A stretch of DNA of 16,643 nucleotides, from the NCBI GenBank assembly GCA_013331805.1, contig DUFS01000017.1, forward strand, positions 1 through 16,643, in the 5' to 3' direction. How positions within the stretch are numbered: the stretch's first letter is position 1; the number at the start of each line of letters is the position of its first letter. Origin of the DNA: Candidatus Micrarchaeota archaeon. Its GTDB lineage: Archaea; Micrarchaeota; Micrarchaeia; Anstonellales; Anstonellaceae. The notes under the pieces were generated by a model. The model made no database searches, was not told where the DNA came from, and saw only the letters and a list, made by a program, of their open reading frames with translations. Shown piece by piece: positions 1-14,794 of this stretch. The position numbers were made by a program, and so were the translations under genes.

Positions 1-25
1 CGGGTTCGAATCCCGGTCGGGGCGC
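1..25 (+). tRNA. 3' end of a tRNA gene (T-arm plus acceptor 3' strand), truncated by the window edge; isotype not determinable (Asp/Glu-like acceptor stem)
   Basis: CGGG-TTCGAAT-CCCG(G) is a canonical T stem-loop, followed by acceptor strand TCGGGGC and discriminator G. No encoded CCA, and the anticodon lies outside the window. Confidence 0.85.
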
Positions 26-36
26 TTGCGATTGAA

Positions 37-91
37 ATAGCAGCGCCCTTGACACTTCCTAATAAGGGGGTGGACACAAGGGTGTTGCTAT
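37..91 (+). promoter_or_regulatory. Long RNA hairpin covering the integrase RBS region and part of its start codon
   Basis: 37-51 ATAGCAGCGCCCTTG pairs with 77-91 CAAGGGTGTTGCTAT (two G-U pairs). Inner stem 53-60/65-72 has two more G-U pairs. The ATG is at 90-92. Confidence 0.6.
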
Positions 92-1271
92 GGAAAAGCG
101 GGACATCTATGAAAAGAAAGTAAAGATGGACTGGTGGCTACGGCGCATAAAGGCCTCAGATTTGGCTGAAGCCACCAAGAAGGAAATACTCGACTTCTTT
201 GACAACTGCGCGGCTACAGGCCTGTCAATGCACCGAATCCTGTTCTACGCTGACAGGTTGTATCCTATTGCCAAAATGCTCGGAAAACCGTTTAAGGAGG
301 CTTCCAGGGCGGATATTGAGGCTATTGTGGCTCAGATAGAGCGCAACGACAAGCTCAGCCCAGACACCAAGGGCATCTACAGGGTGACGCTCAAAAAGTT
401 CTACAAGTGGCTGGAAGGCAACGGCACGGTCTGCCCGGACAAGGTGGCCTGGATAAAGATCAGAAGCAGCAAGAACCACATTCTGCCTGAAGAGCTCCTG
501 ACCAAGGAAGACATCGACAAGCTGATGGACACAGCCCAAAACCCGCGCGACAAGGCTATTATTTCGCTCCTTTACGAGAGCGGGTGCAGGATAGGCGAAA
601 TGGCGACTCTTCAGCTGAAAAACATCTCCTTTGACGAATACGGGGCTATCCTCATGGTGGACGGCAAGACTGGCAGGCGCAGGGTTCGGATTATCGCTTC
701 GGTGCATTATCTGACGACCTGGCTTGAGCACCACACGGACAAGAAGAATCCGAATGCCTATCTCTGGACTAATCTCACATGGCAGCACGGCAAGCCGATG
801 GACTACGACACTTTCCGCCTTCAGATAAGCAAAATAGCCAAAAAAGCCGGAGTTCAGAAACGAGTCAATCCACACGCTTTCAGGCACGCGCGGGCCACCG
901 AGCTTGCCAAGATGGGACTAAACGAGGCTCAGATGTCGGCTTACTTGGGGTGGGTGCCAGATACCGATATGGCCGGCACTTACATACATCTGAGCGGGGC
1001 TGACTTGGACAACGTGCTCCTGGGTGCCTACGGCATAAAGAAGCCCGACGACCAGAACACCACGCCCAAGTGCGCGCGCTGCTTCAAGCTTAACACCGTA
1101 GCTGCGCGCTTCTGCGAGGGATGCGGAATGCCCCTGAGTTTGAGGGCAGCCGTGGAGATGGAAGACAAACGCGTAGAATTTGAAAAGAAGATTGAGCCGT
1201 TAATGGAGCTGCTTCAAAGCGAAGAAATTCGAGTCTATTTAGCTGACAAATTAAAGGTTAACGAGAGGTAG
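90..1271 (+). CDS. Tyrosine recombinase/integrase with C-terminal zinc ribbon
   Basis: Catalytic motifs SGCRIGE (R), DGKTG (K), HAFRH (HxxR), LGW and TYIH (Y). N-terminal core-binding region; C-terminal CARC...CEGC. Adjacent to the tRNA. Confidence 0.95.
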   Translation: MEKRDIYEKKVKMDWWLRRIKASDLAEATKKEILDFFDNCAATGLSMHRILFYADRLYPIAKMLGKPFKEASRADIEAIVAQIERNDKLSPDTKGIYRVTLKKFYKWLEGNGTVCPDKVAWIKIRSSKNHILPEELLTKEDIDKLMDTAQNPRDKAIISLLYESGCRIGEMATLQLKNISFDEYGAILMVDGKTGRRRVRIIASVHYLTTWLEHHTDKKNPNAYLWTNLTWQHGKPMDYDTFRLQISKIAKKAGVQKRVNPHAFRHARATELAKMGLNEAQMSAYLGWVPDTDMAGTYIHLSGADLDNVLLGAYGIKKPDDQNTTPKCARCFKLNTVAARFCEGCGMPLSLRAAVEMEDKRVEFEKKIEPLMELLQSEEIRVYLADKLKVNER

Positions 1272-2400
1272 ATTGTTCAAAAGATGACTCTATATAATTC
1301 AAAATCTCTGTTTTTCCTTTCCCTATTCGTATCCATGCAGGTATCTTATTGTGATTTTCAATATTAACAGTTACACTCCAAATAAATCCACGCTTGCTTT
1401 CTTCCGCCATGTTCACAGAATAGCGTCTCTTCTCTTCAATTAAAAACTTAGCCTTGGCTAATTTCGCGCAAATCTTTTTGACATTATTTCTTCTAATTTT
1501 ATATGGTCTTCTAAATTTTTTTATTCCCAAATATATCGCGTTCCAATCCAGACACATGCCATCCATTTTTGGTATCTTATCGACTAATTTCATATTCTCT
1601 ATTCGAATGTTCTCACTTTCTTCTTCATTTGTTCTATAATCGGGATACTTATTTTCTAAATTTTCGAATTGTCTTCCCCATTCGTGATCAAACTTTGAAT
1701 AGAGGTACTGTAAAATATCAAAACCAATAAACATGCGTCTTTTCGGATCATCATCTTTCATAACAAATTTTTTGTCCCTATATTCTGCAAAATATACGCC
1801 TTTCGCACGGAAAATGTCCATGTGATATGACCCATAATTGTTTCCTCTGTCAAGAGTCTGAACATACTTCATCATACTTAGTTGATCAGTTTTAATATCC
1901 AAGGATGAAAGAAAATTGAGAAATTCTGCCGAATCTGTGTGTGCAATTCTATCTAAGTCGTTGTCAGCTTCTTTTATGTCATCCGTTGGTCTTTCTGAAT
2001 ATCCAGATTTGGGATTTTCTTGGTTTTGAAAAGGATTCTGTTTAGATTTTTTTAATGCAATGTATTCGTCAACGGTTTCCTTTATCCTTTTTCGCATTTC
2101 TCCATCCCACGCATCGTTTTCCCAGATTTTAACCATCAGTTTGGCGCTAATTCGTTTGATAATATCCATGTCTACTAATTCTTCGACATCACATGCTCTA
2201 AGATAAGCTATGTCATCCAAGAGGTTTTCAATATAGTTTTCAACTCTCAAAATCTTTTTTGTTAGACTATTTTTAGCAGTATAATATTTCGCGCGATCTT
2301 CCCCTTTCAGGGCTTTGAGATTCTTTCCAGCAAGTATCTCGCGCTCAATGGGCGTGAAGATTCCTCCTTTTGGAGCATTTTTACCCCTATTTTTGCTCAT
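1258..2400 (-). CDS. Hypothetical protein, possible element regulator (C-terminal wHTH-like segment)
   Basis: 380-aa AT-rich ORF, convergent with the integrase and divergent from the RHH cluster. The segment VKKICAKLAKAKFLIEEKRRYSV is wHTH-like. Confidence 0.7.
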   Translation of the reverse strand: MSKNRGKNAPKGGIFTPIEREILAGKNLKALKGEDRAKYYTAKNSLTKKILRVENYIENLLDDIAYLRACDVEELVDMDIIKRISAKLMVKIWENDAWDGEMRKRIKETVDEYIALKKSKQNPFQNQENPKSGYSERPTDDIKEADNDLDRIAHTDSAEFLNFLSSLDIKTDQLSMMKYVQTLDRGNNYGSYHMDIFRAKGVYFAEYRDKKFVMKDDDPKRRMFIGFDILQYLYSKFDHEWGRQFENLENKYPDYRTNEEESENIRIENMKLVDKIPKMDGMCLDWNAIYLGIKKFRRPYKIRRNNVKKICAKLAKAKFLIEEKRRYSVNMAEESKRGFIWSVTVNIENHNKIPAWIRIGKGKTEILNYIESSFEQSTSR

Positions 2401-2466
2401 AAAGTAATTTACTAAGACATATTTTTATGTATTTCTAACGGCAAAGTCATCTCCGAGGTGAAATGG

Positions 2467-2610
2467 GTGAAACAAACATTGTCGATGTCTGCTGATGAAC
2501 TCAGCCTTCTGAAAGCCCATGCGACTAAGAATGGCCGCACGTTATCTGGGACCATCCGGAAGGCGCTATCCTTGCTTTATGCAAAGGAGGGAGAAAATGC
2601 AGAAACTTGA
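2467..2610 (+). CDS. Small ribbon-helix-helix (CopG-like) protein, not in the ORF track
   Basis: Manual translation MKQTLSMSADELSLLKAHATKNGRTLSGTIRKALSLLYAKEGENAET. GTG start lies 6 nt after GAGGTG (alternative GTG at 2458). Strand-helix-G-R-T-L-S-helix pattern. Confidence 0.75.
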   Translation: MKQTLSMSADELSLLKAHATKNGRTLSGTIRKALSLLYAKEGENAET

Positions 2611-2731
2611 AGGATGGCTGAACTCGTTGGATGAACTCTACAAACTGCTAAAAAAGAAGCAGCAAGCCGTTGAGGGCGGCTTGCCAGAAAACAGTGTTGG
2701 TGATCAATATGGAGAAAAAGGACCTATTTAA
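2597..2731 (+). CDS. Small hypothetical protein (44 aa)
   Basis: ATG at 2597 after GGAGG. Overlaps both neighbours as in a translationally coupled operon. Sequence begins MQKLEGWLNSLDELYKLLKKK. Confidence 0.5.
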   Translation: MQKLEGWLNSLDELYKLLKKKQQAVEGGLPENSVGDQYGEKGPI

Positions 2732-2954
2732 CAATGTGTCTTCGATCTACGACTTTCATTTCGAAGAATTCGCTTTCGCGAGGTTTCGACCCCGTCTTGA
2801 GACCGGTCTGAGCCTCAGAGAATTTTTCAGGCTTGCCGGATGCTGGTTCAGCCTACCCAAGCCAGTCGCACGCCAGCTCCTACACGTCTTTGAAAGAGAC
2901 TATTCCGTGAAAAGACATTACGGACCGTTGGGTATGGAGTTGCACGTAGAATAA
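2709..2954 (+). CDS. Hypothetical protein (81 aa)
   Basis: ATG at 2709 preceded by GGTGAT RBS; overlaps the previous ORF. Confidence 0.6.
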   Translation: MEKKDLFNNVSSIYDFHFEEFAFARFRPRLETGLSLREFFRLAGCWFSLPKPVARQLLHVFERDYSVKRHYGPLGMELHVE

Positions 2955-3145
2955 GGTCGATACCATGAGCAATCTCATTCAGTCCGACATCCCGTCCGTT
3001 ACGGTTCGATACATATCAAAAATATCCAAAGTTACTTACACTATATACACGTGTTTCGTATATACTATACATACTATTCTCGGATCCTTTGCGAATTCCA
3101 TAGAGATTTCGATATTTTTTATACGCATTAAAATTGGTGTTTTTT

Positions 3146-3475
3146 ATGCCAGGAGGTAGGCCAAGGTTAGCGGTTACTGAAAAGGCGGCAAGAACAACAA
3201 TCACTCTAACGCCTGACACTCATGACCATGCTGTTCTGGCAGGCTTAAACATATCTGCCATCTGCGAAGCTGCACTTAGACAACGACTGAATCGCCACAT
3301 TCTGCTGCCAGATGTTCAAAAAACGCTTACTGATGAATTACATGTACTTGAGGCAGAGCTTAATCCGGTGTTAAACGAAAAACAGCATCTAAAGTTCGCT
3401 AATCTCCGTAAAACTATAAACAGACTGGAAGGTGCGGCCTACATTGTGATGGATAAAACGAAGTCTAATGGGTGA
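3146..3475 (+). CDS. CcdA-like/RHH DNA-binding protein
   Basis: RTTITLTPDTHDHAVLAGLNISAICEAAL resembles the CcdA-family RHH signature. GGTG lies upstream of ATG 3146. Confidence 0.65.
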   Translation: MPGGRPRLAVTEKAARTTITLTPDTHDHAVLAGLNISAICEAALRQRLNRHILLPDVQKTLTDELHVLEAELNPVLNEKQHLKFANLRKTINRLEGAAYIVMDKTKSNG

Positions 3476-3481
3476 TATAAC

Positions 3482-4231
3482 ATGACATCGGTAGCCAAAA
3501 AAGCATCAAACCAGAAAAATGCCTTACGCTCGACCGGTCCAAAAAATGTGACTCAAACACGACTAAATGCACTTCAGCATGGTCTTACTGCAGAGGAGAC
3601 AGTCCTTGATAAGAGCCCTTTCTTTGAGTCTAAAGCCGATTTCAGGCGCCTGAATGACCAGTTTATTCAAGATTTGGCTCCTAAGAATGTGGCAGAAGCC
3701 TTCCTTGTCCAGCAAATGGTCCAGGCGTGCTGGCGGCTTCGCAGGGCCTCCAAAGCGGAAAATGCCTTCTTTAGAGAACGCGAAAAAATATTGATTGATG
3801 AAATAGTCAGAAAGCACACCTCTGGTTCGCTTTTTGCGCATCATGATCTGGAAAAGATGAGCAATGCCGCACTCACAGAATTGAAAGAACTTGCAGAAGG
3901 ACATTTAGCAGACTTGGATGCAGGAAAAATTGATCTAAGTGGCTATAGAGGAAATGAAGAATTTGCAAGCATGGACGAAAACAGTCTCAAGAATGAACTC
4001 CGAAAAATGTTTAATGACCAAGTTAGATTTTTTACCGCTCTCATCGGCATAAGGGAAAAGAACGCCTTAGATGAATACGAGGATAGAATAGATTCATCCA
4101 CTATACCGACTGAAAATGGGCTGGATGCTATTCTGCGCTATAGAAACTCAATCCAAAGGGAATTCTATACTGCACTTCGTGAGCTGATGCGCTTGCGCGG
4201 AGCTCCAGCTATAGATGTCCACATAGATTAA
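3482..4231 (+). CDS. Conserved hypothetical mobile-element protein of the 'N-x-x-NA-x-x-STGP...NAL-x-HGL' type
   Basis: Motifs NQKNALRSTGPK...NALQHGL, WRLRRA and LRY...REFYTALREL, recognised from memory as a widespread uncharacterised family. GGTGAT RBS. Confidence 0.8.
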   Translation: MTSVAKKASNQKNALRSTGPKNVTQTRLNALQHGLTAEETVLDKSPFFESKADFRRLNDQFIQDLAPKNVAEAFLVQQMVQACWRLRRASKAENAFFREREKILIDEIVRKHTSGSLFAHHDLEKMSNAALTELKELAEGHLADLDAGKIDLSGYRGNEEFASMDENSLKNELRKMFNDQVRFFTALIGIREKNALDEYEDRIDSSTIPTENGLDAILRYRNSIQREFYTALRELMRLRGAPAIDVHID

Positions 4232-4273
4232 GGTCATTTTTACGAAACGAAGCCAAATGGACAGGTGATGCTT

Positions 4274-4411
4274 ATGTCAATGCCAACATGTATTCGATGT
4301 GGAAATACAACCTTTACGACCTCCGAATATTCTCCAGGATCGATCGGAACCATAGTTATGATCATATGCTGGAGATGCGGTGGAGTCGCGGGTGTAGTAA
4401 GAAAGAAATAA
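4274..4411 (+). CDS. Small zinc-ribbon protein (45 aa), not in the ORF track
   Basis: MSMPTCIRCGNTTFTTSEYSPGSIGTIVMIICWRCGGVAGVVRKK has two CxxCG knuckles. GGTGA RBS at 4264-4268. Confidence 0.75.
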   Translation: MSMPTCIRCGNTTFTTSEYSPGSIGTIVMIICWRCGGVAGVVRKK

Positions 4412-4414
4412 TGG

Positions 4415-5389
4415 TCATTTTTCTACATAATACGGATGTCCTTCTGCAAAGGCTCTAAACCATATTACATATGGCTCTACATCGAAGGGAGTCTCAAATG
4501 CGCACAATCCAGTCGTTTTCATTCCTGGATTTAGATTACCTCCAAATTGACCCGTCGTATAGGTAGAATCAAATTCTCTGTTCTGGGAATCGACAAGTAG
4601 AGTGCTCATACAGTAAAAAGCACTTGATTTTTTACCGACATTTTCAATAGTCACATCAATTACAAAGATTTTTTTATCGCTTGTTTTTCTAACCGCCATG
4701 GAGTTTATCGTGAATTTAGTTGCTCCATTATAGTCGCGTTCCTCCATTGTAGTACTCTTGCCCTCATTTTTCCAATAGTAGTTCCTACAGGTTTCCCCTA
4801 CAGGAATATAGATGTAATCTGTTGTATCACAGCCGCATTTTGAAGCTTTATCAATAAGCTGAAGGGTAGAGTTGCAGTATTTTGGTTTATTATTAGAACA
4901 GCTTTCCACTTGGGTGCCGTCAGGACATTTCGCCAAATCATGTTCACATCTCGCAGTACAAGAACCAGACCCAGTGCAAATATCAGAAGTTCTAATATTC
5001 TTGTCATCACAGTCAGAATCATTCCTGCATTCAGGTTGGATAGCCTGTTTTTTCGTTGTGCAGACCCCCGCAGAACATGTTTTTTCCATGCAGCCTTCAA
5101 TTTCACCAGAACAGCCTATCTGGGGCCCCTCGAACACAAGATTCCTGCACCTATATCCTGTATTCTTGTCGCAGGTATCAATTGTGCAACTATTATTGTC
5201 ATCGCAGCTTTTGGGGCATTTAGGGCACTTGCTGAGATCTGTTACAATACTTTTATCTGGGCACTCGTATGTTTCTGTTGGTTGGGACTGTGGCGGCAGT
5301 GTTTGTGGCTGACTTGACGTCAATTGTCCACTGGAGATGCATCCTGCCAAGAATATCGCAAAGACCAGCCCTAAAATAAGCAGCGTCAA
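4415..5389 (-). CDS. Cys-rich surface lipoprotein with CTDC-like repeats and C-terminal DUF4352-like Ig-fold domain
   Basis: Signal peptide with LAGC lipobox; CDDNNSCTIDTC repeat; C-terminal FVIDVTIENVGK...LVDSQNREFD...LNPG...FETP. TTG start after GGTGG. Confidence 0.8.
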   Translation of the reverse strand: MTLLILGLVFAIFLAGCISSGQLTSSQPQTLPPQSQPTETYECPDKSIVTDLSKCPKCPKSCDDNNSCTIDTCDKNTGYRCRNLVFEGPQIGCSGEIEGCMEKTCSAGVCTTKKQAIQPECRNDSDCDDKNIRTSDICTGSGSCTARCEHDLAKCPDGTQVESCSNNKPKYCNSTLQLIDKASKCGCDTTDYIYIPVGETCRNYYWKNEGKSTTMEERDYNGATKFTINSMAVRKTSDKKIFVIDVTIENVGKKSSAFYCMSTLLVDSQNREFDSTYTTGQFGGNLNPGMKTTGLCAFETPFDVEPYVIWFRAFAEGHPYYVEK

Positions 5390-5468
5390 GCCACCACCCG
5401 CTAAGAATAAGCCGCAAATGATTTAAAATCTATGGCTGGAACTATGTTATATCATAAAGAGGTTCCAC

Positions 5469-5684
5469 ATGTCAAAGACTGAAATACCCAAGAAGATTAT
5501 AGAATTTCTGAAAAAACAGGACTGGCCAGTTACCACTGAGAACGTCATGAAAGAGCTTGACGTTTCTTGGAACACTACACAGGTCCATCTTCTCAAACTG
5601 GTAGCAGACGGCAAAGTCAAATACAAGAAAGTTGGGCGGCAGAACCAGTTTTGGCTTACTGGGAAATATAATAAAGAATTCTAA
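5469..5684 (+). CDS. Winged helix-turn-helix protein
   Basis: IIEFLKK...VTTENVMKELDVSWNTTQVHLLKLVADGKV, followed by wing KKVGRQNQFW. GAGG RBS. Confidence 0.85.
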   Translation: MSKTEIPKKIIEFLKKQDWPVTTENVMKELDVSWNTTQVHLLKLVADGKVKYKKVGRQNQFWLTGKYNKEF

Positions 5685-5793
5685 TCAGGGATTTTCGGGT
5701 CAATGAAGGCGAAGGAATAGAAATTAGACGGGCGCGGATAAAAAAGGCAGAAATAGGGGTTAAACAGATAAAATTTTGCTCTATCAACTAATA

Positions 5794-6561
5794 ATGAAAG
5801 ATATTTCACGAGAACTTCATTCAGTAGATAAAAAGGCTGCACGTCAAGTAGATGAATTACCAAAAAGAAGTCTGACAGGTTTTATCATAATTTTCATTGT
5901 AACAAATTTATTTGCCATATTTCTTGGAGCAATATTCTCTGAACCAATAAACCAATTCTGGCTAAAAATGAATGGTGAAAAACCAAAACTGGAAGTTATT
6001 CCATCTCTTTATCCGACAGCATATGCCAACGCAAGCCTTGTGCGTGTGGATATTACAAATATTGGAAAGATAGATGTTACAAACATGTCCTTATCGTATC
6101 GTTTTCCATGTTACATGAATAAAACAGCAAAGGCACCACTCCATACTTCATTGCTTAAGAGTGGTCAACACGATTTCTTTGAAATTCCAGTACCACTCGT
6201 GCTTAATTGTTCTACATCAACGAAAACATACGATGCAGAGCTTTTCAAGGATAAACGTGGCCAGTGTTTCTTCAAGTCGCAAGGCGAGGTTAAGAGCTCT
6301 GTTTGTATGTATTGTGACTTGAACATGTCAATTGAATCGGAAGATTTTTATCAGGCCTATAGCTCAAGATACCCATACTTTGAGGGAGAAGTTGCGATGG
6401 AGCTTACTTCCGAAAACTGTAGGCCGTATGATGAAGCTGCGAATAAGTCCGAGCTTGTATCTCAGGGTCCATTCGGAATAACAATTATGGATCCGTCTAC
6501 AAGGTGCTTATCAGATCCATCATTTTCTGACTGGTGTAGCGAAAATGGTTTTATCAAGTGA
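5794..6561 (+). CDS. Membrane-anchored hypothetical protein with Cys-containing extracellular domain
   Basis: Single hydrophobic helix FIIIFIVTNLFAIFLGAIF; beta-rich remainder with several N-x-S/T sequons. Start uncertain (5776 or 5794). Confidence 0.75.
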   Translation: MKDISRELHSVDKKAARQVDELPKRSLTGFIIIFIVTNLFAIFLGAIFSEPINQFWLKMNGEKPKLEVIPSLYPTAYANASLVRVDITNIGKIDVTNMSLSYRFPCYMNKTAKAPLHTSLLKSGQHDFFEIPVPLVLNCSTSTKTYDAELFKDKRGQCFFKSQGEVKSSVCMYCDLNMSIESEDFYQAYSSRYPYFEGEVAMELTSENCRPYDEAANKSELVSQGPFGITIMDPSTRCLSDPSFSDWCSENGFIK

Positions 6562-6581
6562 TGTTAGAATTTTACAAAAGT

Positions 6582-8196: not shown

Positions 8197-8274
8197 TCGC
8201 TCGCTCACGCTTCGCGCCGCAGCCCGACCTATTTTCGCTTCGCGAAAAAGCCGCCAAGCGCTTCCTGCTTGTCG

Positions 8275-8288
8275 TCCCGGTCGGGGCG
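8275..8288 (+). repeat. att core copy 3
   Basis: TCCCGGTCGGGGCG identical to 11-24. Confidence 0.9.
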
Positions 8289-8436
8289 AAAAAGTCTTTT
8301 TCACGTCGGAGAATGGAAAATGGCGGGTTCGATTTAGGTATGCTACCGGCGTCAAACGCCCTATTTTCATGGTTTCGACATTTGTGGTTTCACGATAATC
8401 TTGGCTGGAATTCCTGTGGTTCCGACCTGTGCAGTC

Positions 8437-10035
8437 CTAGAGGGGGTCAGTACACGCATCATGTTCCTTCTCTTCCAAGAATTTTGCGAGTTCAACGCGG
8501 TATCTTTCTCTGTCAATATGTTTTGCCCTGCTAAAATATTTCTTGTATGAGCTGTTTTCAGAAAAACTCAGAATCTTGCCTATGATGAACATCTCCTCGA
8601 AGCATTCCGATGTCGGCAGGCGGTTTTTCTGGATAAGGGTGGCAGCCTTGCCAATGTCGCCTTTGCATGCGTGATATGCCGCTGCCAGAAAAACGTATTT
8701 TTCCCTCACGCTGTCGCTTGCCTCGGTGTAATCGTAGAATTCATCCGCGTCAGGCCCGCCATCCGTTTCCTTGACCCTGATGTCTGCCGCGAACTGGAGA
8801 CTGTTTGGTTCACGCATTAATGCCCGGATAAGAGTCAAATCGATTTCGGCATCCTCCACTTTTCCGCGGCTCTTCTCAAGGCAGGCGGCTGTTTCGCGCA
8901 GGAAAGACACGATTTCATCAGCTGCCATACCCCTCGTCTTGCGGCTGTATTCTTCATACCCTTTCTGGTCCGCCGGCGCGAAATTTTCCTTCATGAATTC
9001 CCGTTGCCGTTCCATAATATTCTCCCGCGTGAATGCCATGTCAAGGCCTTTGAGTTCCCTGTGCTCTTTCTTCTCAGCCTCTTGAAGCGCAAGGAAGCTT
9101 TTTTCAAACCCCGGCAAATCCCTTTTCACCAATGAGAGGTATGCCGAGATCAGCTCCTTTTCGTCCAGCAGGTCAATGCCGAAAATATAGCTCGTATCGT
9201 ATACCGCCTGCATAAACCCATCGCATCCAGCAAGGTAATCCTCAGCCATTGCGATGAATTTTTCGCGGTCGTTCGCCAATCCGAAAAAATCCTCAAGGAA
9301 TTCGTCAAAGCCCATGCCATGCCTTTCAATGAAACGGCGGTTGATTTCCATTATTTTCCTGTCCTGCACCTGGAATTTGCCCTTGCTCTTGTATTCCGCA
9401 ATTTCCTGCAGCCCGTGCTCGCGGCTGTATTGCAACAGCTGCTTGCTTTCCTCTTTTGCAGATTCCAGATCTGCCAGCATCTGGCTGAGCTTCGAGAATT
9501 CAGATATGCCGCTGAACAGGTCATCACTCGCAATCAGCCCTATGAAGGAATATTTGCCCGGGTGATTCGGGTTTTCTATCAGCCTCGCATTGACATTGCC
9601 GTTCTTGAAGCCAAGTTCCGATGAGCTGATTACGGTGAACGCTTCGTTGCTGTCAGCATCAACAAAGTGGAATTCCCGCAGGTCAAGCCCTTTCAAATCC
9701 TTTTCGCCTGTTTTTTCGCTGCGAATAAACTTCAGGCTCCGTCTTGTTGAATTTTTGATAAGCATAAACTCCTTTTTTTCGCCATCGCCAAGCGAACTGT
9801 AGAATGCACCCGAAAGGAAGTCGATGAGAAGCCTGCCCTCATGCAAATAATTGAAAAGCGCGTTCTCGATTATGAACTCATTGAATGTCTTTTCGCGCCT
9901 TTCCTTATTCTGACCGTGCGTGAAGTGTTCCATCACTGGCTCCAGGACAAGCAGCGACGAGTTGGTGACGTCGTCTACAATCCCGATTTTCTCAAGATAG
10001 CGGAAAGTGCTGTCGTAAACTTCCAGATATACCAT
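8437..10035 (-). CDS. Hypothetical protein (532 aa, acidic, mostly helical)
   Basis: Long ORF translationally coupled to the upstream gene (TAATG overlap). No family recognised. Confidence 0.8.
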   Translation of the reverse strand: MVYLEVYDSTFRYLEKIGIVDDVTNSSLLVLEPVMEHFTHGQNKERREKTFNEFIIENALFNYLHEGRLLIDFLSGAFYSSLGDGEKKEFMLIKNSTRRSLKFIRSEKTGEKDLKGLDLREFHFVDADSNEAFTVISSSELGFKNGNVNARLIENPNHPGKYSFIGLIASDDLFSGISEFSKLSQMLADLESAKEESKQLLQYSREHGLQEIAEYKSKGKFQVQDRKIMEINRRFIERHGMGFDEFLEDFFGLANDREKFIAMAEDYLAGCDGFMQAVYDTSYIFGIDLLDEKELISAYLSLVKRDLPGFEKSFLALQEAEKKEHRELKGLDMAFTRENIMERQREFMKENFAPADQKGYEEYSRKTRGMAADEIVSFLRETAACLEKSRGKVEDAEIDLTLIRALMREPNSLQFAADIRVKETDGGPDADEFYDYTEASDSVREKYVFLAAAYHACKGDIGKAATLIQKNRLPTSECFEEMFIIGKILSFSENSSYKKYFSRAKHIDRERYRVELAKFLEEKEHDACTDPL

Positions 10036-10430
10036 TATATCCCCGGTCTGGTTCGCAATCTCGTTCTTTTCCTCTCAGCCCTGAATGCGTGTGTGTCCCC
10101 ACAGTGGAAGCGGATTTCGCCCTCCGCGCGCGTGTCCGAAAGGAATGCCATCCAGCCGTCGCCGGATGCCTCGTCGCACTCGTCGTTCCCCGCCCACGTG
10201 AAATCGAACACGCACAGCCCTGTGCCTGTCGATGCGATGTACTTCCCGTCCATCTCCCCGGAAACGAGGATGAACTGGAAGCTTCCGTGCGCGCCCTTTT
10301 CAAGCGTAATGTGCGCCGGCACTTCCATGTCAATGTCCTTGCGGGCAAAGTCGTCCATGTGGACAAACCTCCACTTGCCGAGAAACCGGCTTTTCCAGCC
10401 GCTTGCCATTGCTTTTGCCACGTCTTTCAT
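10035..10430 (-). CDS. Conserved hypothetical beta-rich protein
   Basis: Pattern GKWRFVHM...FTWAGNDECDEASGDGW...GEIRFHCGD; ATGA overlap with the upstream gene. Confidence 0.8.
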   Translation of the reverse strand: MKDVAKAMASGWKSRFLGKWRFVHMDDFARKDIDMEVPAHITLEKGAHGSFQFILVSGEMDGKYIASTGTGLCVFDFTWAGNDECDEASGDGWMAFLSDTRAEGEIRFHCGDTHAFRAERKRTRLRTRPGI

Positions 10431-10993
10431 CCGTTATCCCCGCCCTCTTCAGTCCCTTCAATATCAATCCCGTCATCCTTGCCAAGCGTGCCGTCCAGCA
10501 GCATCTCGTAATAATCTGTGAGCGTGTCCTTGTGACCCCACCCTTCCGCGCTTTTGCCTATGATTTTCTCAATCCTTGGCTTGAACTGCGGAAGAAGTGA
10601 GGGATTGTCTTTCAGGAGCCCCAATGAGGATATGTACATGCTTTCCATACTGGAATAGAATGCCTCGTAAAGGTCGCCGTATTCGTTCTCCACCTCAATC
10701 CCAATCTCAACGTAGGAAACCATCATGTCTAGCATGAGTGGCAGCTCGGGCTTGAGCCTGCGGAAGTCAAGGACAGCCTGCCTTGCCGCGCGCAGGTTTA
10801 TCCTTTCGGAGAACAGCGCCTCCCATATCTTCTTTTTGTAGTATGCTGTTGTGGCGGGGAAGTCGCCCCTGCCCTTAAACCTCATTTCCAGCCATTCGGC
10901 ATTCTCCTTCTTCAAATTGGCAAAGTCAAGGATGATTGCACGAAGCTGACCAGCATCCAATTGAGAAATCTGCTCTTTTAGCTCGGAGTTCAT
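10427..10993 (-). CDS. DUF6155-like helical protein
   Basis: YYKKKI...LRAARQAVLDF...LDMMVSYVEIG...YGDLYEAFYSS resembles DUF6155 as recalled. GGAGG RBS. Confidence 0.7.
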   Translation of the reverse strand: MNSELKEQISQLDAGQLRAIILDFANLKKENAEWLEMRFKGRGDFPATTAYYKKKIWEALFSERINLRAARQAVLDFRRLKPELPLMLDMMVSYVEIGIEVENEYGDLYEAFYSSMESMYISSLGLLKDNPSLLPQFKPRIEKIIGKSAEGWGHKDTLTDYYEMLLDGTLGKDDGIDIEGTEEGGDNG

Positions 10994-10997
10994 TTCC

Positions 10998-11095
10998 TTA
11001 AACCTCCCAGTGTCCGCTGCTTGTCTTTCCCGCCCCGCGGATGGCGTTTTTGGCTTTGAGCTTTTCCAGGCATTCCTTCACTTTTTTTGACTCAT
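10998..11095 (-). pseudogene. Remnant of a wHTH C-terminus
   Basis: Reads KKVKECLEKLKAKNAIRGAGKTSSGHWEV*. The ATG at 11095 is out of frame across an A7 run. Confidence 0.5.
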
Positions 11096-11101
11096 TTCAG
11101 T

Positions 11102-11139
11102 ATACTAAACAATACTAAACTAATCTAATTGTTTAGTAT
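11102..11139. repeat. ATACTAAAC direct/inverted repeat cluster
   Basis: ATACTAAAC at 11102 and 11112; perfect 12-bp inverted repeat 11102-11113 / 11128-11139. Confidence 0.75.
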
Positions 11140-12431
11140 CATTTAACAATCTTGAAACTGCTGGCGCGCGCCCTCCCGGTTTTCTGTAAAAGCCCCAAGT
11201 GCACTAGATGGGCAAAATCCTTCACTGCGGCAGTGACGGAGATATCGTACTTCCTGGCCACGATGGTCGGCCGCAGCTGCTTGCCTTCCTGCATTGCAGC
11301 CAGGATGTGTTTCTGCCGCTCGTTCAGTTTTTGAGTCTGCATGCTCAACCGGACTGAGAACATCGGGTCTGTAACGAACTGCGGGTCTTTGAGGCCGTTC
11401 TGGCGCATGGACTGGTAGATTTTGAGGGTGCCCGTCCCCCATTTTTCAACATAGCCGCAAAGGTAGAGTGCATGGGCAACGTGGGGGTTCTTGATGACGG
11501 AAGAGTGGACGCTGGCCAAATCGTTGATGCTCAGCCCCTCCAGGCGCCCAGGATTCTTGATTTCCAGGTAGTCCGGGCCTATTGTCACGTAGATGTAGGA
11601 GGCGAAGAAGTAATCGCGGTGCACAATCGCGTTGACCAACGCCTCGCGGATGGCTTCCAGCGGGATGCGTAGTTTTTCGATGCGCCGCACGCCCTCCATA
11701 TGGATTTCCTTCGGAATCTGGGAAAGAATGAATTCCAATGTCTGTTCGACAGCCTGGATCAGGTTGCCGTCGAAATCATGCATGGCCCTAAATTCAAGGC
11801 CTGACGAGACAACTGCGCACCGGATGCCCCAGACCGGGAAAAAATCTGCCGGCTTTTTGCCAAAGAGCATCACCGCCCCGTTCTTGAGCTCCTTGCCGTC
11901 TATCAGGCTGAGCTTCGAAAGGATTTCGTCTGCCTTATTTGTTGGGTGGGAAAGACGGCTGGAAGCGGCAGCCATGGACACGAACCTGCGCAGGCTGGCC
12001 TCGTCCAAGTCGGACATGTTGGCATTTTGGCAGGGTGCGTCATCGAAAAAGACGGTCTTGTTCATGAAGAGGCTGCGCAGCTCTTCCGGGTCTGTGACCT
12101 TGAGGGTGGTTTTGTTCACTCGCTTGTAGGCGATGCCTTTGTAGAATATGGGCTTGCGCTTGGCGGGATGGACACGGATGCGGAGGATTTCATGCAGACC
12201 GCTCTTCTCGAAATCGGTTTCGAACACGACCGGCGGCGCGGTCTCATCGTGCATCTTCCTGGTGAATTGCTCGAGCTTGTGCTTCCCGATGCTGGCGCCC
12301 TTTGCGACGCCTTGGTCGGTCATTCCAACGTAGATTGTCCCGCCGTCTCCGTTGGCAAAGGCAGCCATGGTCTTGGCAATGCCGTCCTCGTCCAGGCTTT
12401 CCTTGAACTCTGTTTTCTGGTCTTCCTGCAT
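11139..12431 (-). CDS. AlbA_2 (Schlafen-like) + HATPase_c_4 + C-terminal wHTH protein
   Basis: EDQKTEFKES...AFANGDGGTIYVG (AlbA_2); AIREALVNAIVHRDY, EIKNPG, NPHVA and VEKWGTG (HATPase_c_4); C-terminal HTH. Confidence 0.92.
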   Translation of the reverse strand: MQEDQKTEFKESLDEDGIAKTMAAFANGDGGTIYVGMTDQGVAKGASIGKHKLEQFTRKMHDETAPPVVFETDFEKSGLHEILRIRVHPAKRKPIFYKGIAYKRVNKTTLKVTDPEELRSLFMNKTVFFDDAPCQNANMSDLDEASLRRFVSMAAASSRLSHPTNKADEILSKLSLIDGKELKNGAVMLFGKKPADFFPVWGIRCAVVSSGLEFRAMHDFDGNLIQAVEQTLEFILSQIPKEIHMEGVRRIEKLRIPLEAIREALVNAIVHRDYFFASYIYVTIGPDYLEIKNPGRLEGLSINDLASVHSSVIKNPHVAHALYLCGYVEKWGTGTLKIYQSMRQNGLKDPQFVTDPMFSVRLSMQTQKLNERQKHILAAMQEGKQLRPTIVARKYDISVTAAVKDFAHLVHLGLLQKTGRARASSFKIVK

Positions 12432-12452
12432 GCTGCTGTTTGGGCGAAGAGG

Positions 12453-12507
12453 GTTTATAATACTAATTAATACTAAACTTGCTTTCTTGTTTAATATAGT
12501 TTAGAAT
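12453..12507 (-). promoter_or_regulatory. TATA box overlapped by ATACTAAAC-type operator-like repeats
   Basis: Minus-strand TTATAAAC at 12453-12460. ATACTAAT at 12460 and ATACTAAAC at 12470; inverted GTTTAATAT at 12489 and GTTTAGAAT at 12499. Confidence 0.6.
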
Positions 12508-12596
12508 AAGCTATGGGGGCTAAAAAGCGAGTGAAAGGTGCCGCAGAAGTAGAGATTCCAACGTCAGTGCAACGCCAAACTCTAACTGTTTGTGCT

Positions 12597-12612
12597 AATC
12601 CCGGTCGGGGCG
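12597..12612 (+). repeat. att core copy 4
   Basis: AATCCCGGTCGGGGCG identical to 9-24 (16 bp). Confidence 0.92.
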
Positions 12613-12771
12613 AAGATCTGTCCACGTCGTAGAGTGAAAACGGGCGAGTTCGGTTTGGTGCACCTTACGAGACTATAGCTAAAGACTTAAATATGGAAAC
12701 ATTTTAGTTGCCGCTAATATCGACACTGCTGTGTCTATAGTTCGAGGAAACGATCGATCCGACAAATGAAT

Positions 12772-13758
12772 TTACTCTAGGATCTTAATCGGGGGCAGAT
12801 ATTTTGGAATATCCCTCCTCAGATCAAAAATTTCAAATAGGGTTGTGTTAAAAATTTTGTACAGTCTTGAAAGACTTGCGGCTATTTCTGATGCAGATTT
12901 TTCAAGCTGTTTCGCAATATCTTTGATTGAAACAGATAGCATGAGTTTGTCATTGCTGCTATCAGCCACTGAAGTCATTTTATCAATTAGCAATAGATCA
13001 AGCGTTGCTCGTTCAGTTGCACTCTTTGTCGGAGCAAATGTGATGGCATCGAATAGGTAGGCTTCGTCTGAGTAGAAACGAAGAGGGGAGTATTTCACGC
13101 CATAATGCAGAATTATGCGGTAGGCTAGGACATCGCACCTATCATAGTGGGGCGCAAATATTCCTTCATCGCGATAAAGACTGTCTAGCAAGGATTCTGG
13201 CTTAGAAAGCTTTTCATCCTGGGGGCGCTCAATGGAGTGCAAGCCAATATAAGGAATGTTCCGTTGGAGAGTACGAAGAAGGCCAAGATAAGTCAGCGCA
13301 TCAGGAACTGCCAACGGTTCAAAAGAAACTACTGCATCGAATTTCTCGTTGGGAATTTGCTCGAAACTCTTCTTCTCAGTCCGCAATCCAAGTGAACGCA
13401 GATGTTGAACCCAAAGGTCGCTTATGTCTGTGGCCAGGATCGCATATCCAGCATTTGCAAGGGATTTTGCAACTTTTCCTGTATATGCTGCTGGAAAATA
13501 TATCGAATGTAGCTTATGATTTATGATGCGTTCAGATGCAAGATATGTTTCAAGCTTTCTGAATTCTTCGGCATTGAAATTAAAATCGGCTTTTTCCTGC
13601 TTTTCGTGCGGTATTGGGTTTTCCCAGCCACACTCGGAATGAACCAGAGGCAAGGAACTCCTGAAGTCAGGTAATCGAAGTCGCATATTTGCTATGTTTT
13701 TAGGAGCTATGACAGACTTTGTAAACTCTCCTTTTCGAATGATAAGACTAGAACTCAT
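12772..13758 (-). CDS. Class I SAM-dependent methyltransferase-like protein with C-terminal HTH-like segment
   Basis: Degenerate motif I YFPAAYTG, then ILATDIS and KFDAVVSFEP; C-terminal SIKDIAKQLEKSASEIAASLSRL. Confidence 0.65.
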   Translation of the reverse strand: MSSSLIIRKGEFTKSVIAPKNIANMRLRLPDFRSSLPLVHSECGWENPIPHEKQEKADFNFNAEEFRKLETYLASERIINHKLHSIYFPAAYTGKVAKSLANAGYAILATDISDLWVQHLRSLGLRTEKKSFEQIPNEKFDAVVSFEPLAVPDALTYLGLLRTLQRNIPYIGLHSIERPQDEKLSKPESLLDSLYRDEGIFAPHYDRCDVLAYRIILHYGVKYSPLRFYSDEAYLFDAITFAPTKSATERATLDLLLIDKMTSVADSSNDKLMLSVSIKDIAKQLEKSASEIAASLSRLYKIFNTTLFEIFDLRRDIPKYLPPIKILE

Positions 13759-13922
13759 ATAGTTAAAATCAGTGGTTAAAAGTATAAAAATCTAGTGGCA
13801 CCCCCACAATTTCCTAGGATCTCTTTGGTCGGCTTGATACTGGATCGGTATCCTAACGGACGGTCTGTTGCAGCCTAAGGCGGTTTTATCCCTTTATACA
13901 CATTTTATCCCTAAAACCGCTA

Positions 13923-13970
13923 AGCTTCCAACGCCTTGCAGATGTTACCGATTAACCTTGGGCGGGCGGC
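13923..13970 (+). repeat. Module right-end arm repeat (copy of 14734-14781)
   Basis: 37/48 ungapped identity with 14734-14781 by manual alignment. Confidence 0.8.
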
Positions 13971-14027
13971 TCTCGACGTGGTGGCAAGGCTTTAAAACCT
14001 AGTCCGGCAGAATAAAACCATTGCTTC

Positions 14028-14067
14028 CCTGCGTTTGCCTGGTTCGAAAGGACTGGGCAACCGCAGG
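14028..14067 (+). promoter_or_regulatory. GAAA-tetraloop hairpin in the NYN gene leader
   Basis: CCTGCG-T-TTGCCTGGTTC-GAAA-GGACTGGGCAA-C-CGCAGG, with three G-U pairs. Confidence 0.6.
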
Positions 14068-14082
14068 CTAACGGTCCTTCTT

Positions 14083-14718
14083 ATGAAAACTTCTGCCGCG
14101 CTGTTCATAGACGGCTCCAACTTCTACCATTCGCTCAAGGCAGATGGCCATCTTCCCTTCAACGCCGAGCACTTTGGCAAGCTGTTCGAGCAGCTGTCTG
14201 ACAAGTTCGAGCTCAAGCGCATCTATTTCTATGACGCCCTCAAGGACAGGACAAAAGACCCTGAAGGCTACGCCAGGCAGCAGAAGTTCCATTCCAGCCT
14301 GTCGAAGCTCAGATTTCCCCTCAAGATAAAGACACGAAAGCTCCGCTACCTTGCCAATCTGACGCAAGAGGAAGTCGAAAATGCTGCAACTGCGGTTGGC
14401 ATTGTGGACTCCTGCAGGGAAAAGCTGTGGGCGCTGCTGCACAAGCTGGGGATGATCAGGCTGACAAAGGAGAAAGGCATTGACGTAATGCTGATTGCTG
14501 ATGCCATTGAGCTTGCAAGGACGAAGGATCATGAAGCGGTAATTCTCCTTTCTGGCGATGGCGACTATGTTCCTGGCATAGAGTTAATCCGAAAGTTCGG
14601 CGCCAGGACAGTGAACCTCCACCTCTACCGCGGCAGTTCTACCGAGCTTAGGAATTCCTGCCACCAGAGGATCCAGATCGAGTTTGACGAGGAAGGCACT
14701 TACCTGGAATATCACTGA
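14083..14718 (+). CDS. NYN domain (LabA/DUF88, PIN-like fold) ribonuclease
   Basis: FIDGSNFY, RIYFYD, EKGIDV, LLSGDGDY and STELRNSC motifs. ATG 14083 preferred over TTG 14035. Confidence 0.92.
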   Translation: MKTSAALFIDGSNFYHSLKADGHLPFNAEHFGKLFEQLSDKFELKRIYFYDALKDRTKDPEGYARQQKFHSSLSKLRFPLKIKTRKLRYLANLTQEEVENAATAVGIVDSCREKLWALLHKLGMIRLTKEKGIDVMLIADAIELARTKDHEAVILLSGDGDYVPGIELIRKFGARTVNLHLYRGSSTELRNSCHQRIQIEFDEEGTYLEYH

Positions 14719-14780
14719 AAAACGTCTGGCTTCAGCTTCCAACGGGGTGCAGGTGCTACAGCTTAACCTAATGCAGGCGG

Positions 14781-14794
14781 CCCGGTCGGGGCGC
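14781..14794 (+). repeat. att core copy 5 (outermost attR)
   Basis: CCCGGTCGGGGCGC identical to 12-25, followed by a pyrimidine-rich tract and host-like genes. Confidence 0.9.

Follow-up and report, generated by a model that had tools for sequence, protein, structure and literature searches.

In a tiny groundwater archaeon, the tRNA-Asp(GTC) gene is trailed by an array of accessory DNA in which one recombinase gene is followed by several repeat-bounded segments that appear to lack one. This raises the question of whether the array works in the manner of an integron, with non-autonomous cassettes served in trans by a single tRNA-proximal integrase, as a sequence-only reading had proposed, or whether it was built in some other way. 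Here we address this question in the window, that is, the whole 16,643-nt stretch of DNA that was analysed, together with related genomes and assembled contigs from four public runs.

Copies of a tRNA end partition the locus

The repeated core, CCCGGTCGGGGCG, comprises 13 bases at the 3' end of tRNA-Asp(GTC), namely the 3' T-stem strand, the acceptor strand and the discriminator. Five exact copies, all on the + strand, occur in the window (Table 1), compared with 0.22 expected by chance and with none of 200 shuffles giving at least five; no exact copy was found outside the window in the 1.19-Mb assembly. With core-to-core spacings of 8172, 92, 4324 and 2181, the copies partition 14.8 kb that is missing from relatives. 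These repeats bear out both the segments delimited in the sequence-only reading and its view that att-bounded units stand in tandem at a tRNA 3' end.

The window starts within the tRNA gene; contig C71 carries the complete gene at its end and overlaps window positions 1-23. Among the loci of relatives, ARAGORN assigned this sequence to tRNA-Asp(GTC) in 8 of 10. On the distal side, homologues of the flank genes at 15253-15948 and 16236-16616 lie 1-5 kb behind tRNA-Asp in four relatives (L015, L016, L019 and L021), and the insertion is therefore real relative to them. Independent public-run contigs span the junctions at 8276, 12600 and 14781 (X5 record 20, X4 record 15, X1 record 7 and X4 record 16); among the records listed from the four runs, none spans the 8183/8184 junction. 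The sequence to the left of the internal cores differs from core to core, so that no complete two-armed recombinase site is conserved.

Table 1 Features of the tRNA-Asp array in window coordinates
Feature	Position	Strand	Basis or content
tRNA-Asp(GTC) 3' part (T-loop, 3' T-stem strand, acceptor 3' strand, discriminator)	1..24	+	overlap with C71; ARAGORN in relatives
Core copy 1, attL of integrase element	12-24	+	exact repeat
Integrative element 1, 8.16 kb	25..8183	+	lost exactly at cores in X5 record 20; not at relatives' tRNA-Asp loci
Tyrosine integrase, 393 aa	90..1271	+	PF00589, 97.4 bits
Core copy 2, attR of element 1; the tRNA's own 3' end in the variant without element 1	8184..8196	+	
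Mini, 79-nt two-hairpin module with core-complementary stretch	8197..8275	+	model R1, covariation
Core copy 3	8276..8288	+	exact repeat
Block 3, 4.3 kb, integrase-less	8289..12599	.	left arm 8289-8362, operon, AlbA_2 unit, right arm
AlbA_2 unit with flanking repeats, within block 3	11102..12504	-	nucleotide homology limits
AlbA_2/Schlafen + HATPase_c_4 gene	11139-12431	-	Pfam
Core copy 4; left-side identity to tRNA reaches AAT	12600..12612	+	exact repeat
Block 4a, integrase-less	12613..13970	.	left arm 12613-12660, methyltransferase-like gene, right-arm copy 13923-13970
Candidate decayed core (uncertain), 7/13 positions matching, directly 3' of right-arm copy	13971..13983	+	read from sequence
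Block 4b, NYN unit	~13971/13982..14780	+	NYN gene with upstream 53 nt, right arm 14734-14780
NYN-domain gene	14035-14718	+	PF01936, 77.6 bits
Core copy 5, distal array end, then chromosomal genes	14781..14793	+	exact repeat

A mobile element carries the only recombinase

The tRNA-proximal segment, element 1, encodes the integrase, a CcdA-like RHH protein, a wHTH protein, zinc-ribbon ORFs, a DUF4352 protein and ORFs without assignment, and its G+C is low beyond the integrase gene (0.34-0.49). In one metagenome contig (X5 record 20), the tRNA is joined directly to position 8184 with 0 mismatches over 8184-8587, and the 30 letters before 8184 are identical to the tRNA body, which gives an empty site for element 1. 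Because this variant lacks only 25-8183, element 1 is the newest insertion and, as predicted, the one nearest the tRNA. It is a complete mobile integrative element, present or absent in the population.

The integrase (90-1271) comprises a SAM-like N-domain, a catalytic domain and a C-terminal CxxC...CxxC zinc ribbon; a lambda-type arm-binding domain was not detected in it. The expected catalytic Arg/His-x-x-Arg/Tyr positions and four Cys are invariant across 11 relatives. The enzyme family is common and usually tRNA-adjacent (tRNA directly upstream at 26 of 76 loci). An XerA-like model scored 123.5 bits, under its cut-off of 220. The candidate identity as an integron integrase was rejected, given 66.6 bits for TIGR02249 against a cut-off of 265.

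A six-frame PF00589 search at E of at most 10 matched the window only at 498-995, with one further gene on contig C64; tblastn with the integrase returned only noise elsewhere in the window (E of at least 11), and Pfam on 25 + 23 ORFs of at least 60 aa found no recombinase besides 90-1271. By all three approaches, 8197-14780 contains none. The sequence-only reading was thus right that the recombinase is confined to the tRNA-proximal segment and that the distal units are free of integrase relics.

The 92-bp unit is a structured repeat

The short segment between core copies 2 and 3 had been counted as a segment of the array. It is not an empty cassette but belongs to a separate family of two-hairpin modules, present in many copies behind tRNA genes. 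With model R1, the window gives a single match at E of at most 1, at 8207-8288 (66.4 bits); the hairpins show covariation, with structure conserved and sequence not, and the plan is attC-like (inverse core, hairpins, then core). Members of this family stand behind many tRNA genes across the order, including His, Glu, Ser and Gln tRNAs in this genome and tRNA-Asp in G022, G020 and G013. They also occur in genomes without PF00589, with 15 R1 matches in G010 and 7 in G013. Here the mini is placed among inserted elements, which shows that insertion can take place at either of its core copies.

Distal blocks share arms but not cargo

The distal blocks are compact and contain no pseudogene debris. 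Block 3, whose G+C is host-like, carries a minus-strand operon (8437-10993) for proteins of 532, 131 and 188 aa, none in a known family; a search of 175 other genomes of the order gave the 532-aa protein in none. Its AlbA_2 gene is flanked by ATACTAAAC-type repeats (11102-11145 and 12460-12503), and nucleotide homology to three other genera spans only ~11102-12504 (68-71% aa identity). Within block 3, the gene and its repeats form a unit that can be transferred on its own.

In block 4a, the minus-strand gene at 12772-13758 is class I methyltransferase-like by an Atlas structure lead only (TM about 0.5), and its relatives are restricted to a different family of the order (8 of 175 genomes, 33-40% identity). 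The NYN unit is homologous to G022 from ~13982 onward; the NYN homologue in that genome (81% aa identity) lies beside tRNA-Ala plus a mini, and that of L248 (43% aa) forms a single-gene cassette within a tRNA-Leu array, with both arms common to the neighbouring integrase element. For NYN and AlbA_2 alike, homology to other genomes ends at gene borders and excludes the arms. Of the cargo named from the sequence, AlbA_2/HATPase_c_4 and NYN were confirmed and the methyltransferase kept as a structural lead, but a DUF6155-like protein was not reproduced.

The proposal that the segments have conserved ends held in part. The left arms at 8289 and 12613 (12613-12660 being related to 8289-8340) align with a score of 34, and the right arms 13923-13970 and 14734-14780 with a score of 39, each unmatched in 2000 shuffles. 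However, the right arm of block 3 has just an 11-nt block in common, at the same offset, and the arms of element 1 show no relationship to the arms of blocks 3 and 4, with which it has only the 13-bp core in common. The left arms yielded no consensus fold, and an inverse-core test on the right arms of gene-bearing blocks gave p = 0.56-0.95.

Blocks 3 and 4 are present in all four public runs. The predicted junctions and empty sites were sought in assembled contigs of these runs, which provided the empty site of element 1 but among whose listed records neither block 3 nor block 4 has a junction, circular or otherwise, that would mark its excision or absence. Loose contig ends are concentrated at 12672-12709 and 13897, in block 4a.

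The same site in relatives

As expected from the sequence-only reading, the content behind tRNA-Asp varies among relatives. In congeners, the same left arm at this site heads blocks of unrelated cargo; in L090 it is 83% identical to that of block 3 over 87 nt, compared with 70.7% for the neighbouring chromosomal gene. Core-bounded integrase-less segments (n = 9, 0.8-4.3 kb) occur in seven genomes or contigs (C60, L013, L018, L020, L022, L090 and L186), and none of the nine contains a PF00589 match. Judged by eye, the left-arm motif is absent after the last core in 7 of 9 arrays having it, which indicates that the motif belongs to the units and not to the chromosome. No autonomous element with this left arm was found. 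Tyrosine recombinases are absent from 11 of 22 congeners, and G020 has such a unit with no PF00589 match in an assembly that is 72% complete. In G001, a chimera joins a cassette-type left arm to an element-1-type right arm (86% over 80 nt) without an integrase, which shows that such units arise by deletion within arrays. Mismatches are frequent in the distal cores of relatives (e.g. CACGG, CGCGG, CTCGG).

Relation to known systems

CIMEs of the ICESt1/ICESt3-type islands of Streptococcus are flanked by att sites but have no genes for integration or transfer. At the 3' end of a target gene, they stand in tandem with an element that bears an integrase, and are proposed to move via this neighbour's enzyme (PMC5704250, with Pavlovic 2004 and Bellanger 2011 as references therein). 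Our array likewise has att-flanked integrase-less units in tandem with an integrase-bearing element. Unlike the Streptococcus CIMEs as described there, it resides in an archaeon, has no conjugation module anywhere and has units whose arm family is their own and differs from that of the element beside them; decay as their origin is seen here for one relative only (G001).

The Dehalococcoides ssrA islands lie in tandem 3' of one small-RNA gene, each with a short 3'-end direct repeat and a conserved motif next to it, and vary in content by strain; 15 islands without an integration module were read by the authors as possible CIMEs (PMC3146451). They resemble our array in these tandem repeat-bounded units, some integrase-less, in the motif beside the repeat and in variable content, and differ, in that account, by a serine recombinase, a tmRNA target, larger size with rdhA genes and a bacterial host. 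In the tycheposon islands of Prochlorococcus, successive integrations at one tRNA displace older elements outward, leaving partial tRNA copies between units and degenerate remnants, with element presence heterogeneous in populations (bioRxiv 10.1101/2020.12.28.424599). Here, too, tRNA-end copies part the units, older elements lie outward and presence varies, whereas the tycheposons described there have replication modules, larger cargo and fragmented integrases, of which we found none.

Weighing the alternatives

The account towards which we lean, and which we consider somewhat probable, is tandem accretion at the tRNA-Asp site, with CIME-like blocks movable by any core-acting integrase and cargo that is also shuffled. 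A true integron analogue would instead have a resident integrase, a fixed tRNA att site and promoterless cassettes recognised through a folded, IntI/attC-like site. The locus does resemble an integron in having a single recombinase gene followed by recombinase-less units parted by a repeated core, and the mini has an attC-like plan; integrons themselves reportedly occur in archaeal MAGs, as Ghaly et al. are said to have found in 2022. Yet the integrase is non-IntI, as the failed model indicates, and sits on an 8.2-kb mobile element missing from the variant; half of the congeners examined lack any tyrosine recombinase, the att site is a tRNA end, and the gene-bearing blocks have neither attC at their ends nor, by R1 and the inverse-core test, a mini-like terminal fold, their left arms also being without a consensus fold. 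We regard this reading as very improbable and largely refuted here: what survives of the integron-like cassettes is the array and its compact, relic-free units, not the platform integrase, its IntI identity or arms shared with the integrase element.

A more serious competitor, if still an unlikely one, is that the distal blocks are dead, immobile remnants of autonomous elements that inserted in succession and lost integrase and most genes by deletion, with arms and cores alike by descent. This is the usual fate of such elements according to reviews (PMC5704250, PMC8371274), and it would fit the internal deletion in G001, the candidate decayed core at 13971, the mismatched distal cores of relatives, the host-like G+C of block 3 and the presence of blocks 3 and 4 in all runs without junctions. 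It sits poorly with five perfect cores, with blocks lacking debris, with a non-coding left arm better conserved than the adjacent coding gene (window versus L090) and with unrelated cargo under the same arm in many congeners; the loose ends in block 4a further suggest its exchange between strains, the arms staying. We find it harder still to credit exchange of the blocks without any site-specific recombinase, by homologous recombination at arms, cores or minis or by a mini-spreading process, with the integrase element a bystander. Cargo genes at other tRNAs with different junctions, minis in G010 and G013 despite no recombinase match in either, and homologous-recombination module exchange between tandem elements, cited in a review (PMC8371274), all speak for it. 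However, the common arms are short (about 50-90 nt) and just 70-83% identical, exact 13-bp tRNA-end direct repeats are the classic product of a tyrosine integrase, and element 1 displays that chemistry at this very site.

How the array may have formed

Under tandem accretion, this tRNA-Asp hot spot of a small-genome archaeon, probably a member of the Micrarchaeota, would have been built by repeated site-specific insertion at the last 13 bases of the gene. The ancestral order was tRNA, mini, core and integrase-less blocks, and element 1 with its simple Xer-like tyrosine integrase inserted last, into the tRNA-proximal core. The blocks would be non-autonomous CIME-type units retaining working att sites, which any core-acting integrase, either 90-1271 or enzymes of other tRNA-Asp elements in the community, could excise, insert or carry along with a neighbour; we infer that the 90-1271 integrase may have captured them in trans. 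As a simple tyrosine recombinase, a short-armed Xer-like enzyme should need little beyond the core. Several observations count against this account: the unrelated arms of element 1, the differing sequence to the left of the internal cores, the lack of block 3/4 junctions in the listed contigs, the G001 chimera, the end of NYN and AlbA_2 homology at gene borders, G020 without PF00589 and the failure to find an autonomous element with this left arm.

Since the genes for NYN and AlbA_2 proteins reappear at other tRNAs, with different junctions, exchange is not confined to this att site. Cargo moves independently of the arms and is also shuffled among tRNA hot spots by other recombination, which makes the array a mosaic rather than a row of cassettes with fixed content. 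As a concept this has precedents, for it matches the tandem accretion with CIMEs described in bacteria (PMC5704250, PMC3146451). Known there, such att-bounded integrase-less stacks have hardly been described in archaea of this kind.

Five copies of a tRNA-Asp end

The 13-mer CCCGGTCGGGGCG occurs in the window as five exact copies on one strand, against 0.22 copies expected by chance and five in none of 200 shuffles, which bears out the five direct copies claimed in an earlier, sequence-only reading; the rest of the 83-contig, 1.19-Mb assembly holds no further exact copy. The window is the initial 16.6 kb of a 34.5-kb contig whose start falls within a tRNA gene, and the start of another contig (C71), reverse-complemented, terminates in the full tRNA, the final 23 bases of which are window bases 1-23. 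ARAGORN called tRNA-Asp(GTC) for the same sequence in 8 of 10 relatives' loci; at the other two it made no tRNA call, and there an interruption follows the anticodon loop of the tRNA-Asp sequence. From this identity, the core corresponds to the 3′ strand of the T-stem, the 3′ strand of the acceptor stem and the discriminator base. The host is an archaeon with a small genome; its tRNA genes contain introns, and CCA is not encoded.

Genes to the right of the last core have homologues 1-5 kb behind tRNA-Asp in relatives (16236-16616 in L015, L016, L019 and L021; 15253-15948 in L020), which marks 25-14780 as extra DNA. The runs containing the DNA are groundwater and soil metagenomes. Independent contigs from public runs bridge the cores at 8276 (run X5, record 20), 12600 (X4, record 15) and 14781 (X1, record 7; X4, record 16; X5, record 24), ruling out an assembly artefact at these three junctions, and no contig bridging 8183/8184 was among the listed records of 4 runs. 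Viral contigs searched with the tRNA end gave 0 matches. As a separate observation, GC-rich hairpins with flanking A- and T-runs lie directly 5′ of tRNA-Asp in C71, L013, L015, L016 and L019, and their stems vary among species.

Coordinates of the array features and of related modules elsewhere in the genome (G000)
Feature	Position	Remark
Core copies	12, 8184, 8276, 12600, 14781	13 bp
Element 1	25-8183	tRNA-proximal segment
Integrase	90-1271	element 1
ORF	6582-7085 (-)	element 1
ORF	7332-7520	62 aa, matches zinc-ribbon family
ORF	7533-8066 (-)	weak zinc-ribbon matches
Mini-family locus, window	8197-8288	79-nt interior at 8197-8275
Block 3	8289-12599	integrase-less
ATACTAAAC-type repeats, ~44 nt	11102-11145 and 12460-12503	flank AlbA_2/HATPase_c_4 gene
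Block 4a	12613-13970	integrase-less
Second copy of right arm	13923-13970	end of block 4a
Block 4b	13982-14780	integrase-less
Mini-family loci, G000	C13:24-168, C36:17992-18150, C37:609-688, C46:8879-8961, C56:20693-20779	

Element 1 is a polymorphic integrase element

The protein that marks the tRNA-proximal segment, element 1, is a tyrosine recombinase of 393 aa (PF00589, 97.4 bits). It starts with a SAM-like domain and bears near its C-terminus a ribbon of four cysteines, whose CxxC...CxxC motif (residues 328-345) is invariant in 11 relatives, as are R167, H262, R265 and Y298, which we take to be catalytic residues. The best-scoring model is archaeal XerA-like, at 123.5 bits below its cut-off of 220. 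Element 1 has the attributes of a tyrosine-integrase element, namely the catalytic core, direct repeats of the tRNA end at both ends (the cores at 12 and 8184) and an empty site: a 676-bp contig (X5, record 20) matches 8184-8587 with 0 mismatches, and the 30 letters upstream are identical to the tRNA-Asp body. This empty site of 25-8183 indicates that element 1 is a separate unit which only part of the population carries and which was the last to insert at the tRNA-proximal core, so that the proposed order of arrival, newest nearest the tRNA, holds for element 1. Branching with and without element 1 is also the probable reason why the contig breaks at the tRNA.

Contigs of several runs diverge from the window inside element 1 (at 5031-5556, 5892, 7172, 799 and 7357), which suggests that variant versions of it coexist in the samples; neither these many loose ends nor the stretches lacking coverage carry weight in the conclusions drawn here. 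Its two minus-strand ORFs are 60-64% identical over their first 28 residues and may, on that likeness, be paralogues. An inverted 15-nt motif resembling the left arms (the DNA following the cores) lies at 8063-8077; with ~0.85 such matches expected by chance in the contig, it is no more than a hint.

Relatives of the integrase family are present in 12 of 22 congeners, with a maximum of 17 per genome, and number 397 in the genome contig database, across several archaeal phyla. Most loci with the family are titled Candidatus Micrarchaeota; close relatives (39-51% identity) come, by locus titles, from Micrarchaeota, Bathyarchaeota, Aenigmatarchaeota, Nanoarchaeota, Thermoplasmata and Methanocellales. 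Of the 76 integrase loci examined, 26 have a tRNA gene immediately ahead of the integrase and oriented alike. PF00589 matches are absent from 11 of 22 congeners, some of whose assemblies are rated 97-100% complete. Tyrosine recombinases in the genus thus seem to arrive only on mobile elements, and the genus apparently lacks a chromosomal recombinase of the XerA type. The second integrase of this genome (C64) has no tRNA-Asp core or repeat alongside.

Integrase-less blocks share arms with one another

Among ORFs of at least 60 aa between 8003 and 15039, Pfam detected no recombinase or relic, and neither a six-frame search for PF00589 fragments (E ≤ 10) nor tblastn with the integrase found any in the window beyond the integrase itself. 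Both the restriction of the recombinase to the tRNA-proximal segment and the lack of integrase relics in the distal segments, as previously claimed, are upheld by these searches. The cargo includes an operon encoding proteins of 532, 131 and 188 aa of no known family. The 532-aa protein was found in none of the 175 other genomes searched in the order, nor did the genome contig database yield a relative; its Atlas leads scored ≤0.86, and we adopted no name. Other cargo comprises an AlbA_2/HATPase_c_4 protein, an NYN-domain protein and a third protein for which a methyltransferase-like identity is an Atlas lead only.

The left arms after the cores at 8276 and 12600 are related (0/2000 shuffles), and the right arm preceding 14781 recurs as a second copy (0/2000 shuffles), directly behind which a site matches the core at 7 of 13 positions. 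The 2.2-kb segment is therefore probably two units, blocks 4a and 4b, separated solely by that site. The conserved ends described earlier are real for these two left arms and two right arms and do not extend to element 1, whose arms are unrelated. Blocks 3, 4a and 4b each have att sites at both ends and no recombination or transfer genes within, as befits cis-mobilizable elements (CIMEs). RNAalifold found no consensus fold for the five closest left arms (-5.98 kcal/mol, covariation -0.08); such arms, kept in sequence without a common fold, suggest a protein-binding or regulatory sequence. Contigs have loose ends at 12672-12709 and at 13897, a pattern suggesting that related strains have other DNA in place of block 4a but keep its arms. 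Rfam, searched with the whole window at E ≤ 1, returned a single sub-threshold snoRNA-like chance match.

Comparable arrays exist in relatives. At congeners' tRNA-Asp loci and at one metagenomic locus (L090), seven genomes or contigs together contain nine segments of 0.8-4.3 kb bounded by cores, none with a PF00589 match inside. The cargo of one genome is unrelated to that of another, confirming the anticipated variability of content at this locus. A left-arm motif, a T-run followed by a ACGTCGGAGAATGG-like sequence, heads most of the nine segments; by eye it is absent after the last core in 7 of 9 motif-holding arrays, and hence belongs to the units and not to the native trailer. Between the window and L090 the left arm is 83% identical over 87 nt, compared with 70.7% for the neighbouring chromosomal gene and no match for the cargo. 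The metagenome scan for core plus left-arm motif matched 118 stretches; among the 80 loci examined only L090 was relevant, the remainder being chance matches in GC-rich DNA.

A tRNA-Leu array was also seen in a relative's genome (L232/L185; G003:C31, 1230-9013), where the tRNA-Leu end is repeated at 1230, 7722, 8913 and 9003 and 270 nt of the integrase upstream region recur at 7722. It contains a 19-nt copy of the tRNA-Asp end at 8873, so arrays of two specificities are nested.

Cargo recurs at other tRNA genes

Beyond this genome, only 6 of 175 in the order have the NYN gene. The copy in congener G022 (C3, L270), at 81% identity, has tRNA-Ala(GGC) as its neighbour, and its nucleotide homology to the window is limited to 13982-14718; another, 43% identical, is the sole gene of a 0.95-kb cassette within a tRNA-Leu array (L248:13118-14072). 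The gene is thus seen at three tRNA hot spots (Asp, Ala, Leu), where cores and arms differ. The closest relatives of the AlbA_2 gene belong to three other genera (68-71% amino acid identity), and homology is confined to 11102-12504, that is, the gene and its flanking repeats. In 2 of the 3 genera the gene-plus-repeat unit has a nearby tRNA gene (tRNA-Trp, tRNA-Val), and in 2 of the 3 the gene is bracketed by short direct repeats. Recurrence of both genes at other sites implies that cargo moves on its own.

A family of two-hairpin modules trails tRNA genes

The 79-nt interior of the 92-bp unit (the mini) aligns with modules lying between two tRNA-end copies elsewhere: behind tRNA-His (two), tRNA-Glu (two), tRNA-Gln and tRNA-Ser in this genome, and in congeners behind tRNA-Asp (G022, G020, G013) and tRNA-Ala (G022). 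Members are ~65-90 nt long, end in a copy of their own tRNA's 3′ end and carry an internal stretch complementary to that end. Two hairpins are common to ten units, with compensatory changes in 12 of 18 pairs (RNAalifold). When a third, long-range helix between the internal stretch and the terminal core copy is included, 86.3% of cells are paired, compared with 66.3 ± 2.1 in shuffles (0/500) and 38-54% in slid controls; taken by itself, this helix is paired in 71% of cells. Both sides have changed in 15 of 23 pairs.

A covariance model of the family (R1) found 7 copies of at least 50 bits in this genome and, in the window, no match besides 8207-8288. Across the order 53 of 151 genomes have matches, as do 20 of 22 congeners; a single genome may have as many as 21, and they often stand in tandem. 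At 21 of the 29 loci examined, a tRNA gene on the same strand lies just upstream. The mini itself shows the compensated hairpins, the tRNA-end copy and the position behind a tRNA gene. The family is absent from Rfam, and our literature search listed no paper on such modules. The modules may be the fused arms of elements, folded sites of attachment or RNAs that resemble tRNA; by eye, a transcript would be in keeping with the G-U type pairs seen on the tRNA strand and with T-runs that appear only behind the last core.

Separately, the tRNA-Asp loci of congeners G002, G012, G009 and G016 (L181, L182, L189 and L190) carry a T-loop insertion of 19-45 nt directly before the core. Those of L181 and L182 have words in common with the mini (GGCGCCAAAA, AAAAGCCGC), and the T-loop intron may, judging by these words, be a mini that has lost its first core copy.

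Mobilization and comparison with known systems

That integrase-less cassettes sit at att sites stands, and the earlier interpretation is partly supported overall; several findings, the independent movement of cargo among them, speak against a simple capture by the 90-1271 integrase. The blocks are linked to element 1 through the 13-bp core alone, and the bases left of the internal cores differ from one another. No junction of a missing or excised distal block was listed among the assembled contigs of 4 runs, and no parent element with the same arms as the blocks was found: in a search for one with its integrase at the distal end, integrases beside a tRNA-Asp-like core at the integrase start were limited to L208, L259 and G001:C129 (3 of 76 loci), and their arms have no significant likeness to those of the window. 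Two relatives' loci bear on parentage. At L248 a cassette and the neighbouring integrase element share both arms. G001 has a deletion chimera, a unit of 3.7 kb that lacks an integrase: its left arm is of the cassette type, while its right arm and that of element 1 are 86% identical over 80 nt.

The comparison with integrons fails on all three features examined. The integrase is not of the IntI type, scoring well below cut-off with TIGR02249 (66.6 versus 265 bits) and NF011946 (33.7 versus 435). Folded cassette ends are not apparent, judged by analogy with attC: the right arms before 8184, 12600 and 14781 are no more complementary to the core than shuffles are (p 0.56-0.95), and R1 gave no further candidate in the window. 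Nor is there a stable platform with a resident integrase, since the integrase is missing along with 25-8183 in one contig and half of the congeners have no PF00589 match. The locus likewise differs from one with an SSV-type split integrase, as the six-frame search yielded no PF00589 fragment and the end-proximal ORFs have no family match. Casposon-type target duplication, also considered, appears unlikely, there being no Cas1 or other family match in the ORFs and no terminal inverted repeats seen by eye.

The main features of the array are covered by precedents: tandem accretion and CIMEs (PMC5704250), Dehalococcoides ssrA arrays with 15 islands lacking an integration module (PMC3146451), tycheposon islands (bioRxiv 10.1101/2020.12.28.424599) and, in archaea, tandem integrated elements with integrase loss (PMC8371274). 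For Micrarchaeota or DPANN our literature search listed no publication on such arrays, and the type is barely documented in print for the lineage.

Implications

A more ambitious reading, which we regard as improbable, is that cores, structured minis and shared arms form a lineage-wide Micrarchaeota gene-capture system, in which any simple integrase present would insert or exchange small integrase-less units at tRNA ends and the folded mini would be a portable, re-targetable attachment site, a counterpart of attC fitting any tRNA. The two-hairpin modules behind tRNA genes may also bear on the origin of spare tRNA ends and of tRNA introns.

DPANN archaea, host-dependent and with tiny genomes, acquire accessory and defence genes by routes that are poorly known. 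The locus described here offers a concrete route of gene gain: the tRNA end has served repeatedly as a docking site, element 1 is demonstrably mobile, and the cargo of the small integrase-less units, of nuclease, ATPase or methyltransferase type, varies among species. The recombinase and its 13-bp site are a pair small enough for in vitro work, and if the small units are truly moved in trans, they would constitute a simple natural gene-capture platform in archaea.
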